This document shows positions 17,729 through 36,360 of a stretch of 46,714 nt of DNA, one piece after another. The notes under the pieces are model-generated. The model was not told the origin of the DNA. It saw only the letters and a list, made by a program, of their open reading frames with translations, and searched no databases. The DNA lies in contig CAZNJA010000002.1 in assembly GCA_964573245.1 (NCBI GenBank), positions 1 to 46,714 of the forward strand. The letters are read 5' to 3'. A program made the translations under genes and the position numbers. The stretch comes from an uncultured bacterium (GTDB taxonomy: Bacteria; CAIJMQ01). Each line of letters opens with the position of its first letter. The stretch's first letter is position 1.

Positions 17729-19270
17729 TTGAAGAACAATATCGTTCCTGTCGTTTTATCGGTGTCCTCTGCCACGCTTTTGACCTTTTCTTTTCATCCT
17801 TTCAACCTTTCATTTTTGGCGTGGATAGCGTTGGTCCCTTTGTTCTGCATTCCCCAAAAAATATCGCCTAAAAAAATATTTATCCTTTATTATTCTGCCG
17901 GGATTATTTTCTGGTTATCTCATATTTGGTGGCTGATTTATGTAACTCCTTTAGGTTATGTTCTTTTGTCTTTTTATCTTGCCCTATTTTTCGGGCTTTT
18001 GGGATTACTTATTAAATTTTCGAGAGAAAAGACAGGTTATCCTCTCTTGTTTCTCGCCCCGCCTATTTGGGTTATGCTCGAGTTTGCAAGAACTTATATG
18101 TTAATAAGCTTTCCCTGGTCTTTGCTGGGTTATTCGCAATGGCACAATACCGCGCTTATACAAATCTCTTCCATAACAGGTGTTTACGGCGTTTCTTTTT
18201 TGATTGTTATGTTCAATGCGGCAGCATCCGATTTGGTTCTGTTAAAAACAAAAAAGCACTTTCGAAATCTTTTATTATCTTTTCTGACAATAATAAATGT
18301 TATCGTATGGGGCTGGCATGCAATTCCTTTAGAGCAAGAAGGGTACGCCTGCCAGAAAATAAAAATTTCTGTGATTCAAGGAAACATTCCGCAGAACATC
18401 AAATGGGACGAAGAATATTCGAAAGAAATTATAAATACTTATGCGGAGCTAAGCATTTACGCAGGGACAGACCATGATGTTTCTTTAATCGTTTGGCCCG
18501 AAACTTCATATCCGGATTATATTAGCGTTGAAAGCGAATTGTTCCAAAAAGTGCGCAATTTGACTTATTATCTAGACACGCATTTGTTGTTTGGCGCGGT
18601 TACAAGCCAAAATAACAGAGATTACAACTCTGCTTTGCTACTATTATCTCCCGAGGCAGAGATAGAGCAAGTTTATAATAAGTTGCGTCTTGTCCAGTTT
18701 GCCGAATATCTTCCCCTTAAAAAACTTTTATTTTTTTTAAGCGACATTTTCCCGCAAATAGGCGATTTTAGCAAAGGCACGGAATACACTATATTCAATA
18801 TCAAAAATCAAATATCAAATATCAAATATAACTTCGCAACATTGATTTGTTTCGAGGATTTGTTTCCGGATTTGGCAAGGGACTTTACCAATAACGGAGC
18901 ACAGTTTTTAGTCAATATCACTAACGACGCGCACTTTAAAGAATCCCCTGCTTTATGGCAACATTTTGCTCATTCAATTTTCAGAGCCGTAGAAAACAGA
19001 AGACCAATAGTAAGAGCGGCAAACAACGGTATAAGCGCGTTTATAAATTCTTACGGAAAACCGATTGAAATATTAACAGACGCCAACGGCAAAGCACGCG
19101 GAGCACGAGGGTACGCAACCGCGCAAATTAGCCCTTCCAACACTAAAACTTTTTATACCCGTTTCGGAGATTTATTCATTTACATCAACTTGCTTTACCT
19201 GTTTGCTTTATCTATTTATCCTATCCGACAACAAAGAAAAAAAGGAAAACAGGGAGTAAAGAAATTATAA
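17729..19270 (+). CDS. lnt: Apolipoprotein N-acyltransferase
   Basis: 513 aa with an N-terminal polytopic domain and a CN-hydrolase domain. Catalytic-triad contexts: IVWPETSYP, YNKLRLVQFAEYLP, TLICFEDLFP. TTG start. Confidence 0.88.
   Translation: MKNNIVPVVLSVSSATLLTFSFHPFNLSFLAWIALVPLFCIPQKISPKKIFILYYSAGIIFWLSHIWWLIYVTPLGYVLLSFYLALFFGLLGLLIKFSREKTGYPLLFLAPPIWVMLEFARTYMLISFPWSLLGYSQWHNTALIQISSITGVYGVSFLIVMFNAAASDLVLLKTKKHFRNLLLSFLTIINVIVWGWHAIPLEQEGYACQKIKISVIQGNIPQNIKWDEEYSKEIINTYAELSIYAGTDHDVSLIVWPETSYPDYISVESELFQKVRNLTYYLDTHLLFGAVTSQNNRDYNSALLLLSPEAEIEQVYNKLRLVQFAEYLPLKKLLFFLSDIFPQIGDFSKGTEYTIFNIKNQISNIKYNFATLICFEDLFPDLARDFTNNGAQFLVNITNDAHFKESPALWQHFAHSIFRAVENRRPIVRAANNGISAFINSYGKPIEILTDANGKARGARGYATAQISPSNTKTFYTRFGDLFIYINLLYLFALSIYPIRQQRKKGKQGVKKL
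18795..18830 (+). repeat. Heptanucleotide tandem array (TCAATA TCAAAAA TCAAATA x3) inside the lnt CDS
   Basis: Direct reading. It encodes FNIKNQISNIKYN just upstream of the catalytic-Cys strand. The 19-mer AATATCAAAAATCAAATAT (18797-18815) is identical to 27836-27854. Confidence 0.85.
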
Positions 19271-21343: not shown

Positions 21344-21344
21344 T

Positions 21345-21398
21345 AACTCGCAACTACAGAAAACGGTTATCGGTTTTCGGTTATCGGTGTTCGTTAAA
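21345..21398. repeat. Heptanucleotide direct array (AACTCGC AACTACA ... CGGTTAT CGGTTTT CGGTTAT CGGTGTT CGTTAAA)
   Basis: Direct reading. It fills the convergent spacer between the DUF47 gene and the orphan gene and overlaps the orphan gene's stop codon (21394-21396). Confidence 0.8.
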
Positions 21399-23469: not shown

Positions 23470-23481
23470 ATCTATGAAAAT

Positions 23482-23562
23482 GGATACTCGATGCTTGATA
23501 CTAGATTCTAGTTAATAAATCCTCCTGCTTTTACGAGTATCGAGAATCCAGTATCTAGTATC
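23482..23562. repeat. Inverted pair of heptamer arrays: (NGATNCT)x4, 21-nt loop, (GAGTATC GAGAATC CAGTATC TAGTATC)
   Basis: Left arm GGATACT CGATGCT TGATACT AGATTCT at 23482-23509. Right arm at 23535-23562. The 30-nt arms are 22/30 complementary in register. Confidence 0.85.
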
Positions 23563-23570
23563 ATTGTAAG

Positions 23571-26936: not shown

Positions 26937-27812
26937 TTATAAATACGGAGTTCCGTCCGCATCTACCAATTTTTTAAACACGTCGCGGATTTTATTGGTG
27001 ATATTTCCCACTTTGCCGCTGCCTATAGTCCTGCCATCGACCTTCACAATGGGAATTATTTCCGCCGCGGTGCCGGTAAGAAAACATTCCTGTGCGTTAA
27101 ACAAATTATACCTGGAAATAGTTCCTTCCTTTACTTCGATAGATATTTTTTTTGCAATTTCCATGACAACTCCCCTTGTTATCCCGTCAAGAACACCCAT
27201 ATGCGTGGAGGGGGTTTTTAAAACATCATTCTCGATTATAAAAACATTATCTGCCGTGCATTCGGTTACAAAACCTTCCCGATTTAACATTATCGCCTCT
27301 TTAAAACCGGCATTTTTTGCCTCTATATTCGCCAATACATTATTTAGATAATTCAGGGATTTCACCTGAGGGTCTAAGTTCTGCGAATTGTTTCGTTGGG
27401 TAGGAACCGTAATTATCTCAATACCTCCTCTGCAAAATTTCTCAGGATACAGTTCTATCTTACCTACAATAACAAATATCGTCGCATTTTTACACTTCTC
27501 GGGAGCAAGCCCCAAATCGCCTTCACCTCTTGTTACCACAATTCTTATATAACAGTCCTTTTGACCGTTGATACGCGCTGTTTTTATAGTAGCTTCAATA
27601 AGTTTTTCTTTTGTAAACGGTATATTGAGGCAAATATATTTTGCGGATTTATATAATCTGTCTATATGTTCCCGCAATTTAAATATTCTGCCGTTATACG
27701 TCCTTAATCCTTCAAAAACACCGTCTCCGTAAAGAAGACCGTGGTCATAAACGGAAATTTTTGCTTCTCCTCTTGAGACAAATTCGCCGTTCAAATATAT
27801 TTTCTGGTCCAT
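26937..27812 (-). CDS. ilvE: Branched-chain amino acid aminotransferase (PLP fold type IV)
   Basis: Y.NGEF.....A..SV.DHG.LYGDGVFEG.R.YNG..F.L..H..RL..SA is the class IV signature. ATG 27812 is preceded by AAGGGG; the track's GTG 27818 is less likely. Confidence 0.85.
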   Translation of the reverse strand: MDQKIYLNGEFVSRGEAKISVYDHGLLYGDGVFEGLRTYNGRIFKLREHIDRLYKSAKYICLNIPFTKEKLIEATIKTARINGQKDCYIRIVVTRGEGDLGLAPEKCKNATIFVIVGKIELYPEKFCRGGIEIITVPTQRNNSQNLDPQVKSLNYLNNVLANIEAKNAGFKEAIMLNREGFVTECTADNVFIIENDVLKTPSTHMGVLDGITRGVVMEIAKKISIEVKEGTISRYNLFNAQECFLTGTAAEIIPIVKVDGRTIGSGKVGNITNKIRDVFKKLVDADGTPYL

Positions 27813-27833
27813 CTTCACCCCTTATTTTAAAAT

Positions 27834-28007
27834 TAAATATCAAAAATCAAATATTAAAATTTAAATAGGAAAACCCGCGCTGACAAAGTTCTGTTATTAG
27901 CTTTTTCTGGTATCGAGCATTTAGTATCAAGAATCCAGTTTCTCATTTTGAACTTTAATTTGTCATTTTGCATTTTTACTTTTTAATTTTTACTTTTGCC
28001 TTTAGAT
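27834..28007. repeat. Composite heptamer-periodic spacer: (YAAAWAT)x5, a 41-nt non-periodic core, then 14 consecutive heptamers (GTATCGA GCATTTA GTATCAA GAATCCA GTTTCTC ATTTTGA ... TTTTTAC TTTTGCC TTTAGAT)
   Basis: Direct reading. It occupies nearly all of the 196-202 bp rpiB-ilvE spacer. It shares the words GTATCGAG, TAGTATCAAG and GAATCCAG with the array at 23482-23562. Confidence 0.85.
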
Positions 28008-28014
28008 TATACCT

Positions 28015-28473
28015 CTAACAGCATTTATTTTCTATTTCACTTATTAAATCAACCCTTCTTTGATGCCTTCCGCCGTCGAATGGGGTCGAAAGCCACATAT
28101 CAACAATCTGAATTGCCAGCTCAAGTGAAATGGTTCTCTGTCCAATTGCAAGAACATTCGCGTTATTGTGACCTCTCGCCCATTTTGCCGTGTCATAACT
28201 CCAGCATAAGGAGCAACGAATGCCTTTGATTTTGTTAGCAACAATAGCTTCTCCGTTGCCGGAACCACCGAATACAATGCCGTAATCCGCCTTCCCCTTT
28301 GCAACCGCTTCCGCCGTCGGTCTGACAAAATTCGGATAATCGCACGGCTGGTCCGAATCAGTACCGAAATCTAGCACTTCAATACCCTTTTCAATTAGAT
28401 ATTTCTTAATCGCCTCCTTGTATTTGAATCCGGCATGGTCGCTTCCCAAAGCAACGGAAATATTAGTGTCCAT
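28015..28473 (-). CDS. rpiB: Ribose-5-phosphate isomerase B
   Basis: 152 aa. ...GSDHAGF..K..I..YL...G.EV.D.G...... followed by GI...G.GNGE.I.ANK..GIR. Confidence 0.9.
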   Translation of the reverse strand: MDTNISVALGSDHAGFKYKEAIKKYLIEKGIEVLDFGTDSDQPCDYPNFVRPTAEAVAKGKADYGIVFGGSGNGEAIVANKIKGIRCSLCWSYDTAKWARGHNNANVLAIGQRTISLELAIQIVDMWLSTPFDGGRHQRRVDLISEIENKCC

Positions 28474-29184: not shown

Positions 29185-30283
29185 TTATTTAATTTTCTTC
29201 CCTCTTAGATAATCAAAAATAAAGGGGTCTATATTCCCATCTAACACATCGTCGGCATTCGTCTGCTCGGTGCCGGTGCGATGGTCTTTAACCAGCGTAT
29301 AAGGATAAAGGACATAACTTCGTATTTGATTTCCCCACTGGATATCTTTTTTTTCACCGACAAGTTTCTTCTGTTTCTCTTTTTCGAGCGCCTGAAAATG
29401 CTGATAAAGCCGCGATTTCAGCATTTCCATAGCAATATGCTTATTCTGGTGCTGGGATTTTTCTGATTGAGCACTAGCGACTATGCTTGTTGGGGTATGT
29501 GTTATCCTGACCGCGGAATCGGTTTTGTTCACATGCTGACCCCCAGGGCCAGAAGAGCGAAAAGTATCGATTTTCAAGTCAGCGTCATTGATTTCTACTT
29601 CCAACCCCTCATCGATTTTTGGAATAACTTCAACCGCCGCAAAAGAAGTATGCCTTCTCTTGGCGGCGTCAAACGGAGAAATTCTAACCAACCTGTGTAT
29701 CCCTTTTTCGCTTTTCAAATAACCGTAAGAGAAATCCTTTGGAAATCGCAAACTTGCATATTTAATCCCCGCTTCATCTCCCAGGCTGACATCCACAACT
29801 TCCGCTGACATATCGTTTCGCTCCGCCCATCTTATATACATCCGAAGCAGCATCTGTGCCCAGTCGCAGGATTCCGTGCCTCCCGCTCCGGGTTTTATCA
29901 TAAGGAAACAGCCATTTTTATCGTAAGTGTCAGCCAATAAAACTTCTAACTGCCATCTTTCAATTTCCTTTTCTATTTTTGCAAGTTCGGCTGAAACTTC
30001 CTGCGATGTTTCTTTATCTTCTTCTTCTTGCGCTAATTGATTTAAAACTTCCACATCTTCTATTTTTTTGTGCAATTTATTCCATTTAATTTGTTCTCCT
30101 TTAAGCGAATCAAGTTTTTTCATTACCTTTTTCGCGCTCTCAACATCCTGCCAAAGGCCATCTTTTTCAGACTCCTTGCTTAACCGGTCAATTTCCTTTC
30201 CCTTGTTTCCTAAGTCAAAGAAGCCCCCGTATGTCTCTTAACTTATCTTTAAAACTTGCCAATTTAGCTCTTATATCATCCAT
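29185..30283 (-). CDS. prfB: Peptide chain release factor 2, expressed through a programmed +1 frameshift: complement(join(29185..30216,30218..30283))
   Basis: Frame 0 reads ATG(30283) MDDIRAKLASFKDKLRDIRGLL then TGA(30217..30215). The +1 frame continues DLGNKGKEIDRLSKESEKDGLWQDVESAKKVMKKLDSL... into ORF 29185..30123. The SPF (RISPFDA) and GGQ (GPGGQHVNKTDSAV) motifs are present. The joined product is 365 aa. Confidence 0.93.
30214..30228 (-). promoter_or_regulatory. RF2 autoregulatory +1 frameshift site
   Basis: The minus strand reads GGGGG CTT CTT TGA C: an SD-like G-run, a 3-nt spacer, the CUU slippery codon, then the UGA-C stop context. This is the same architecture as E. coli prfB (AGGGGG UAU CUU UGA C). 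Confidence 0.9.
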
Positions 30284-31475: not shown

Positions 31476-31476
31476 A

Positions 31477-31599
31477 TTCCAAATCACAGGCACCAAACCA
31501 CAAATAAATTCCAATATTCAAAAGTATCCGTTTGGAATTTTGGTTATTGATTATTGGATATTATTTGATGATTAGTACTTGGAATTTATGATTTGGAAG
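31477..31599. repeat. Inverted heptamer-periodic arms in the dehydrogenase-phoH spacer
   Basis: TTCCAAATCA (31477-31486) pairs with TGATTTGGAA (31589-31598). AAATTCCAA (31506-31514) pairs with TTGGAATTT (31579-31587, also 31532-31540). The right arm is in 7-nt register: TTGGTTA TTGATTA TTGGATA (4-nt slip) TTGATGA TTAGTAC TTGGAAT TTATGAT TTGGAAG. Confidence 0.75.
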
Positions 31600-31607
31600 C
31601 TATACAG

Positions 31608-31636
31608 TTGACTTATCTTCGTCTCTTTTCTAATAT
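31608..31636 (+). promoter_or_regulatory. Candidate sigma70-type promoter immediately upstream of phoH (would give a near-leaderless mRNA)
   Basis: TTGACT (31608-31613), 17 nt spacer, TAATAT (31631-31636). Only 11 nt separate the -10 element from ATG 31648, and there is no SD sequence. Confidence 0.35.
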
Positions 31637-31647
31637 CTTATTGAACG

Positions 31648-36287: not shown

Positions 36288-36290
36288 CTT

Positions 36291-36360
36291 TAGATAATAG
36301 ACACTAGACCACAGACTAAAAGAAAGTCCAATATCTAATGTCTATGGTCTAATAACTATG
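36291..36360. repeat. Inverted heptamer arrays (TAGATAA TAGACAC TAGACCA CAGACTA ... ATCTAAT GTCTATG GTCTAAT AACTATG) in the lptA-lptB spacer
   Basis: Direct reading. TAGACCACAGAC (36305-36316) is complementary to GTCTATGGTCTA (36340-36351) with one mismatch. The right arm runs into the lptB start codon. Confidence 0.8.

Follow-up and report, generated by a model that had tools for sequence, protein, structure and literature searches.

Since 2007, tandem repeats of a seven-nucleotide unit have been known as the commonest long simple sequence repeats (LSSRs) of prokaryotes, and they are the most abundant class of such repeats in many of these organisms. On their origins and roles, the papers used here (PMC4679880, PMC4692102) offer proposals only, one of which is a slippage idea based on the polymerase footprint and ties the repeats to how much DNA the polymerase holds (Mrazek, 2007, summarised in both papers). 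Here we describe heptanucleotide repeats in the spacer between rpiB and ilvE (positions 27813-28014) of a 46,714-nucleotide stretch of DNA, hereafter the window (contig CAZNJA010000002.1 of assembly GCA_964573245.1), from a metagenome-assembled genome (MAG) of Candidatus Omnitrophota; the closest IlvE proteins come from MAGs of the same group. Loci used for comparison are designated by L numbers.

According to the same two papers, the short tandemly repeated repetitive (STRR) sequences of heterocystous cyanobacteria and other heptanucleotide LSSRs share with the repeats described here a head-to-tail arrangement of 7-nt units, an intergenic position at many loci per genome, restriction to particular lineages, variation of length and sequence between close relatives, and slippage as the proposed origin (PMC4679880, PMC4692102). 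The likeness to cyanobacterial STRR heptamers drawn in the first-pass annotation of this DNA points to the right family of phenomena. STRR genomes, however, use few fixed units in long and fairly clean arrays, whereas at least seven unit families occur here in short, impure arrays, in which 14-nt alternation is common and an array is often paired with its inverted copy into a hairpin. The GGGAATC repeats of Xanthomonas and the GGGGA(T/C)T repeats of Nostoc are likewise intergenic heptamers, found between the same gene pairs in related species with extensive variation in length and sequence (those of Xanthomonas vary between sister species), and some form inverted pairs with stem-loop potential (PMC4692102). 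These repeats are G-rich, quadruplex-forming and of one consensus per genome, whereas those described here are mostly A/T- or purine-rich, lack G-runs and follow many consensus units. The TAACTGA repeats of marine Beggiatoaceae, some cyanobacteria and Bacteroidetes are also intergenic heptamers (2-6 copies), often in the leader immediately upstream of start codons, and a post-transcriptional role has been suggested for them, with S1, cold-shock proteins (Csp) or CsrA as candidate binders (PMC4679880). They differ in that one unit serves the whole genome (169 sets), keeps a single orientation, overlaps the position of the ribosome-binding site and has almost no inverted sets; in the present case the array leaves the adjacent ribosome-binding site intact, and the units vary between spacers.

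Two further systems offer partial parallels. Repetitive extragenic palindromic (REP) sequences and bacterial interspersed mosaic elements (BIMEs) are, like the repeats studied here, dispersed in spacers after gene 3' ends, variable in presence between strains, and able to form hairpins at many sites. Each REP family, however, has a conserved palindrome of 20-40 nt with no internal tandem periodicity (PMC3333891), whereas the rpiB-ilvE spacer has no hairpin and no RAYT gene is found among the annotated genes of the window. The omega (ParB) heptad operators, or parS sites, of plasmid pSM19035 consist of contiguous, gapless 7-bp units (7-10 copies) in direct and inverted orientation, and the ribbon-helix-helix (RHH) protein omega wraps these WATCACW repeats in a left-handed spiral, which provides a physical precedent for a 7-bp step (PMC9499535). 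That system has one consensus, WATCACW; its arrays overlap promoters in a plasmid regulon for partition and copy control, and the cognate RHH gene lies next to them. None of this holds here.

The periodicity of the spacer was tested by self-match at a lag of 7 nt over 27819-28014, using 2000 dinucleotide-preserving shuffles. The observed value (0.524) lies far above that of the shuffles (0.314 +/- 0.032, z = 6.5); lags 14, 21 and 28 are likewise elevated, and lags 3, 9, 10 and 11 are not. Tandem Repeats Finder (TRF) reports periods 7 and 14 at 27829-27867 and 27966-28003, with 14-nt super-units in both outer arrays (AAAATTAAATATCA, 2.8 copies; TTTTGCATTTTTAC, 2.7 copies). The 7-nt period announced in the first-pass annotation is real, its parse into five heptamers (27834-27868), a 41-nt core (27869-27909) and fourteen heptamers (27910-28007) is exact in its coordinates, and its statement that such a period is non-coding and unrelated to 10-11 bp phasing holds. 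The same annotation saw the entire spacer as written in one register, a description that has to be abandoned: the left and right blocks are one base out of phase ((27910-27834) mod 7 = 6), and the spacer consequently comprises three arrays in two phases plus a unique, non-periodic core. Chance low-complexity sequence or an assembly artefact is a scarcely credible source of this pattern. At 26% G+C a raised self-similarity is indeed expected, but the excess over dinucleotide-preserving shuffles is specific to lag 7 and its multiples. The independent Logan assembly L010 (SRR9705735) carries an identical spacer, which rules out an artefact of assembly, and the signal is present in about a third of the spacers of six genomes from different samples.

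The spacer separates two minus-strand genes, in a gene order (prfB-tsaC-rpiB-ilvE-clpB-hypothetical-folC) that is kept among relatives. Its features and flanking genes are as follows, in the direction of transcription.

28015-28473, minus strand: rpiB, ribose-5-phosphate isomerase B (NCBIfam).
28006-28014, minus strand: -10-like box AGGTATAAT, putative ilvE promoter, abutting the rpiB stop codon (28015-28017).
27946-28008, minus strand: A-rich heptamer array (gene strand AAAAGTA AAAATTA AAAAGTA AAAATGC AAAATGA CAAATTA AAGTTCA AAAATGAG...); lag-7 z = 4.8; TRF period 14, 2.7 copies.
27911-27945, no strand assigned: GTATC-type block (plus strand GTATCGA GCATTTA GTATCAA GAATCCA GTTTCTC); lag-7 z = 3.2.
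27869-27910, no strand assigned: non-periodic core; lag-7 z = -0.9.
27829-27868, no strand assigned: left heptamer array (plus strand AAAATTA AATATCA AAAATCA AATATTA AAATTTA AATAG); lag-7 z = 2.9; TRF period 14, 2.8 copies, 84% match.
27815-27821, minus strand: Shine-Dalgarno sequence GGGGTGA of ilvE (ATG at 27812-27810), kept in orthologous spacers.
26937-27812, minus strand: ilvE, branched-chain amino acid aminotransferase (NCBIfam).

Read on the plus strand, the array at 27946-28008 consists of T-tract heptamers, so that on one and the same strand the left array is A-rich and the right array T-rich; on the gene strand the left array forms a U-rich leader segment immediately upstream of the ribosome-binding site. 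The GTATC-type block is a half-element whose partner arm is absent. A TAGAAA hexamer inside rpiB lies 17 nt upstream of the TATAAT, and the pair TAGAAA-17-TATAAT matches at 10/12 positions in a consensus scan. A weaker promoter-like pair in the core (TTGTCA-17-TAAATT, gene strand, 27886-27858) scores 9/12, which is not above shuffle expectation. Because promoter-like matches as a whole do not exceed that expectation (3 vs 1.7 +/- 1.4), it is solely by its conservation that the TATAAT box is called, putatively, as the ilvE promoter. The core itself (27869-27910) has no Rfam match and no homologue in the other loci compared.

The first-pass annotation also considered the first block to be roughly the reverse complement of the last, and the arms to be inverted. 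Complementarity exceeds chance only weakly: in the best stretch of 30 nt, 23 bases are complementary, compared with 20.3 +/- 1.2 after shuffling (p ~0.03), and the longest complementary pair in the spacer spans 49 nt at 71% complementarity. A hairpin or cruciform at this spacer was ruled out by folding, since neither the RNA of the gene strand (z = +1.6, that is, worse than shuffles) or of the other strand (z = -0.2) nor the DNA (z = +0.7) folds better than shuffled sequence. Inversion of the arms is thus weak and yields no stable hairpin here; as shown below, true foldbacks whose arms are built of heptamers are common elsewhere among the spacers of the clade. These data also bear on the idea that ilvE is regulated through a structured leader in this spacer, for example an attenuator, T-box, riboswitch or small leader peptide. 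Its position upstream of a branched-chain amino acid gene and a 40-codon open reading frame (ORF) readable through the spacer on the gene strand would suit such a leader. We nevertheless consider it very improbable: Rfam 15, including T-box and amino-acid leader models, gives no match at gathering score in the whole window and none at E <= 1 in 27700-28150; a scan for tRNA and tmRNA found none; no intrinsic terminator (G+C-rich stem plus T-run) occurs in 27813-28014, the sole match lying inside ilvE; no ORF could be conserved under a period of 7 nt; and the whole segment is missing or replaced in relatives.

The lag-7 signal is not confined to this contig and recurs in other spacers and other genomes. 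Both outcomes that the first-pass annotation named as refuting its observation, a signal no stronger than in shuffled sequence and a pattern limited to this contig, thus fail to occur, and the observation stands. In the window, five of the 16 spacers of at least 30 nt reach a lag-7 z >= 4 (21344-21393, 23470-23570, 27813-28014, 31476-31647 and 36288-36357). A scan of about 160 kb of DNA from the clade, covering six genomes with called genes and seven loci with a cruder ORF mask, gave z >= 3 in 24/74 spacers of the former and in 22/58 ORF-free segments of the latter, where lags 5, 6 and 8-11 reached this level in 0-3 segments. Pooled over 8.6 kb of spacer DNA, the match excess is +0.056 at lag 7, +0.047 at lag 14 and +0.036 at lag 21, with values near zero at other lags, and coding DNA shows period 3 only, so the heptad period is restricted to spacers. 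TRF assigns a period of 7, 14 or 21 to 31 of the 45 intergenic arrays found in 10.2 kb, compared with about one per shuffled replicate; arrays with these periods cover 9% of intergenic bases, and ten further spacer arrays have a period of 10, 11 or 20. The distribution depends on gene orientation (co-directional 19/60, convergent 5/6, divergent 0/8; Fisher p = 0.048). In three more distant Omnitrophota loci (L024-L026, 62-70% IlvE identity), none of 20 spacers reaches z >= 3 (Fisher p = 0.0014 versus the clade); a few weak heptamer arrays are reported by TRF in L026. The phylogenetic limit of the signal looks sharp over the few loci sampled, with signal at 75% IlvE identity or above and none at 70% or below. 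The kind of repeat is already known; what is mainly distinctive is the density of arrays in this clade, the diversity of their units and this apparently sharp boundary. The clade is an unusually dense and diverse case, with arrays in about a third of spacers, many unit families, direct arrays together with hairpin pairs, and replacement of whole cassettes. Because the boundary appears sharp, the question of why the step is seven becomes testable by comparative genomics, by asking which gene families co-appear with the repeats.

Comparison of 13 orthologous rpiB-ilvE spacers, ranging from 30 to 202 nt, revealed a conserved frame around a rapidly changing interior. In all 13, [AC][GT]GTATAAT directly follows the rpiB stop and a GGGGTGA-type ribosome-binding site is kept, and everything downstream of the former is variable. 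The filling between the two elements is 12-36 nt long in six of the 13 relatives, against about 185 nt in the window, and takes the following forms.

L053: 12 nt from TATAAT to the ribosome-binding site.
L001, L018 and L052: 20-25 nt, A-rich, already reading in sevens.
L013: four AAAAAGT-type units.
L022: five units.
L011, L012 and L027: a hairpin of GAGTAGN, 4-7 units.
L016: an AAAGACN / GTCTTTN hairpin (-41 kcal/mol, z = -6.7).
L002 and L021: a foldback stepping by 10-11 nt (GGAAATAnnn / nnnTATTTCC).
Window: about 185 nt.

The A-rich array of the window (about nine units) begins in the register and with the units of its closest relative, L013 (88% IlvE identity), which has four of them (GAAAGTA AAGAGTA AAAAGTA AAAAGGC after TATAAT-C), and this shared beginning fits an expansion in situ. 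Turnover is otherwise rapid and does not track the gene tree: L002, L016 and L013 have IlvE proteins that are 92-95% identical and yet carry three unrelated fillings, and the filling of L002 is common to L021 (77% IlvE identity), not to L016 (95%). At another site, a GTAATTN array, about 14 units are present in L002 and 4-5 in L016, and a 21-nt (3 x 7) indel separates these two genomes. The indel-length spectrum of L002, L016 and L013 was also inspected for multiples of seven; its alignments cross non-homologous fillings, which makes it uninterpretable apart from the 21-nt indel and the presence or absence of GC-rich palindromes. For annotation, these comparisons mean that long leaders and 'structured' spacers in such MAGs are mostly fast-evolving repeat filling rather than conserved regulatory RNAs.

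At least seven unrelated unit families were distinguished (AAAAGTA, GATACTN, AAAGACN, GAGTAGN, CGGTTWT, GTAATTN and TCGAAWW), in arrays that are short (3-14 units) and of low purity (63-93% match), often with a 14-nt alternation. The units are degenerate, and no single unit or small set of fixed units is common to all arrays of a genome. The first-pass annotation supposed that each locus has its own unit; instead, a limited number of families recurs at non-orthologous spacers and in other genomes.

GATACTN: window 23470-23570 and 27911-27945; L022.
AAAGACN: L016 (two spacers); L018.
GAGTAGN: L011, L012; L027 (two spacers); L022.
CGGTTWT: window, L016, L018 and L022, in each case after the phoU-like gene.
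GTAATTN: L002, L016.
A-rich AAAATNN: window 27942-27990; arrays downstream of folC in L016 and L022.

Sharing between spacers extends to the arrays of the rpiB-ilvE spacer themselves. GTATCNA/GAATCCA units are present both at 27911-27945 and at 23536-23562, the right arm of a foldback upstream of folC. The A-rich array at 27942-27990 shows 87% identity with L016 11266-11311 over 46 nt and 89% identity with L022 15796-15830 over 35 nt, in both cases in a different spacer, downstream of folC. The left array (27829-27851) matches L021 20749-20770 at 22/22 positions, immediately upstream of another gene's ribosome-binding site, and the orthologous spacer of L022 at 19/19 positions, inverted relative to the genes. 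By themselves, short A-rich matches cannot be taken as evidence of homology, because they also turn up in unrelated viral contigs: a scan of viral contigs for exact patterns returned 11 matches for (GAGTAGA)n and 13 for an A-rich 18-mer, all in unrelated contigs. The 18-mer ATATCAAAAATCAAATAT at 27836-27853 recurs at 18797-18829. The latter is a 4.7-copy AATATCA run inside lnt (apolipoprotein N-acyltransferase, 17729-19270), in a variable loop (NIKNQISNIKYN), where 21 nt equal three heptamers or seven codons; the Lnt of L021 has a 36-residue insert at another point, and lnt of L022 is called as two genes with a 243-nt stretch containing (TTTGGTA)n between them.

The explanation towards which we lean, with little more than even confidence, is that a heptanucleotide repeat of the STRR/LSSR kind, dispersed, dispensable and expanded by slippage, occupies the spacer and inflates the leader of ilvE. 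The spacer would be this leader, with the TATAAT at the rpiB stop, GGGGTGA before the ATG, and the inflated stretch in between, filled by three degenerate heptanucleotide tandem arrays and the short unique core. The arrays would be local representatives of an intergenic heptad-array population that extends through the clade. Slipped-strand mispairing or unequal exchange, in steps of 7 and 14 nt, may have acted on an A-rich leader already reading in sevens; inverted duplication would have been added, giving rise to true hairpins at other spacers, and array segments would have been copied from spacer to spacer. The likeliest effect is passive, namely a long unstructured leader, A-rich and then U-rich, which may modulate the stability or translation of the ilvE mRNA. 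The filling is apparently not required for ilvE, because the frame (TATAAT and ribosome-binding site) is kept while everything between is freely replaced.

Many arrays of the clade are paired with an inverted copy and fold strongly (z down to -7.5), and others are direct-only and unstructured. Besides the rpiB-ilvE spacer, the window contains four such loci.

21344-21393, plus strand: direct (CGGTTWT)n array right after the stop of a PhoU_div-type gene, in a convergent spacer; lag-7 self-match 0.65, z = 6.0-6.5.
23470-23570, no strand assigned: foldback between a 242-residue hypothetical gene and folC, with arms GATACTN (four units) / NAGTATC (four units); lag-7 z = 4.5-5.3.
31476-31647, plus strand: TTGGTTA/TTGATTA-type array from leuB to phoH; lag-7 z = 4.0; TRF periods 7 and 10.
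36288-36357, plus strand: TAGACNN / GTCTANN foldback flanked by an lptA-like and an ABC ATPase gene; lag-7 z = 4.5-5.0; RNA fold z = -5.7.

The (CGGTTWT)n array has no inverted partner and is found at the orthologous position in L016 (13408-13675), L018 (15652-15695) and L022 (17539-17651), with unit and position kept across genomes of about 76% IlvE identity. The foldback at 23470-23570 (RNA fold -22.9 kcal/mol, z = -2.5) is partly conserved in L022 (14380-14463). In the hypothetical gene-folC spacer, a foldback with tandem-repeat arms is always present, drawn from six unrelated families in seven genomes (window 23470-23570; L020 14316-14423; L021 14316-14464; L016 9643-9817; L018 14188-14337; L022 14380-14463; L027 11506-11586). 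L020 and L021, which are about 98% identical, have entirely different foldbacks there, the whole spacer having been swapped. No recognisable Shine-Dalgarno sequence precedes folC in any of the seven genomes. A polarity in which a purine-rich arm precedes a pyrimidine-rich one was seen in 8/11 structured periodic spacers and was discarded: it falls short of significance, and these spacers are not independent cases.

These foldbacks raise the possibility, which we hold to be real without thinking it probable, that the arrays are mobile or copy-pasted elements, REP/BIME-like or resembling miniature inverted-repeat transposable elements (MITEs), with tandem-repeat arms that form RNA or DNA hairpins at gene 3' ends or between cistrons. 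Such elements could stabilise mRNA or act as processing sites or non-canonical terminators, and the spacer upstream of ilvE could be a decayed or composite copy. The orientation bias given above is REP-like, and hairpins are strong at L016 (the -41 kcal/mol foldback in the ilvE leader), L027 (z = -4.4 to -7.5) and window 36288-36357. Families also occupy several spacers per genome (the GGAAATA/TATTTCC foldback three times in L021, GAGTAGA twice in L027), and both the replacement of a whole spacer between 98% identical strains and the departure of the filling from the gene tree suit copied cassettes. The rpiB-ilvE spacer, however, folds no better than shuffles and has no terminator-like stem with T-run, and strongly periodic arrays exist that are direct-only (window 21344-21393, L022 17539-17651, L016 11252-11348). 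Filled and empty orthologous sites differ in everything between TATAAT and the ribosome-binding site, with no target-site duplication, duplicated flank or defined termini. Neither a transposase nor a RAYT gene is present among the annotated genes of the 46.7-kb window, and the shared A-rich 18-mer, in view of its viral matches, is not diagnostic.

The units themselves bear on another proposal, that the heptad arrays are bound by a protein, either on DNA (an omega- or ParB-like RHH protein) or on RNA with a footprint of about 7 nt (a cold-shock protein, S1 or a HutP-like protein). Gapless runs of four or more 7-bp repeats, direct and/or inverted, are present, and such contiguous units, typically in 4-9 copies, have the geometry described for omega (PMC9499535). 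In the window, the array begins immediately behind the -10-like box and reaches to the ribosome-binding site; some units are kept at orthologous sites; and Csp, S1 and CsrA have been put forward as binders of the TAACTGA repeats (PMC4679880). One protein could not, however, read at least seven unrelated unit families, the divergent promoter spacers carry no arrays, the filling of the ilvE leader changes its unit or is absent in close relatives, and no RHH gene lies next to arrays among the annotated genes of the window. We therefore judge this proposal improbable.

Several observations weigh against the slippage-expanded, dispensable repeat that we favour. The (CGGTTWT)n array and the GATAC foldback upstream of folC keep both unit and position across about 76% IlvE identity, which suggests constraint, and the constant presence of a foldback at the hypothetical gene-folC site looks like selection for structure or a targeted insertion site, not neutral drift. 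Slippage in situ is by itself insufficient, because L002 shares its filling with L021 and not with L016, and slippage accounts neither for the step of seven nor for a second class of foldbacks with a step of 10-11 nt. Near-identical assemblies (L016/L017, L018/L019, L022/L023, window/L010) show no unit-number polymorphism, so that slippage is not directly observed and, like the lack of an essential function, is something that we infer.

An unlikely alternative is a sequence-independent 'ruler' process specific to the clade, with the heptad and 10-11 nt classes as its product. Intergenic foldback cassettes would then be built, copied and exchanged in steps of constant size by an enzyme or a binding protein. 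Such a ruler would account for one period across unrelated units, for a constant foldback of changing family at the folC site and for different cassettes at 98% identity. If this were so, the repeats would reflect a non-autonomous intergenic element of a new kind, or else a novel protein system that measures DNA or RNA, rather than plain slippage.

In the second class, the arms of the intergenic foldbacks advance in steps of 10-11 nt, with a 20-nt super-unit; they are of the types GGAAATAnnn / nnnTATTTCC and GGTTAAnnnn / nnnnTTAACC, and several copies occur per genome (L021 9851-10000, 10877-10982, 20523-20876 and 14316-14464; L020 14316-14423; L002 2854-3000; L011 1145-1306; L012 1607-1782). 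Small GC-rich palindromes of 24-42 nt (CCTGCCCGC...GCGGGCAGG) come and go between close strains (L020 8647 / L021 8644; 9297 / 9336; L002 2143 and 3906 versus L016), and one is nested in a foldback arm (L021 20630-20665). Clusters of GC-rich hairpins (ACTCCGCACTCC..GGAGTGC..GGGGGG) fill L016 2210-2723, 3753-3939 and 4612-4766. These palindromes and clusters look like classical REP-type elements.

Elsewhere in the cluster, the ilvE-clpB spacers of two repeat-free relatives (L052 1420-1469; L053 2587-2626) contain a clean TTGATAG-N-TATAAT promoter-like pair, which suggests that each gene of the cluster may have its own promoter. The prfB +1 programmed frameshift motif CTTTGAC lies at 30214-30220 (minus strand), upstream of the called prfB ORF (29185-30123), and this position explains a conserved 'intergenic' sequence common to L001, L002, L016, L018 and L022. 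Finally, a repeat with periods 6, 12 and 24 (TATCAGTATCTG, 8.5 copies) occupies positions 1338-1439 of the window, in a region with short unannotated ORFs only, and could encode an (Asp-Thr)n-like linker on the minus strand.

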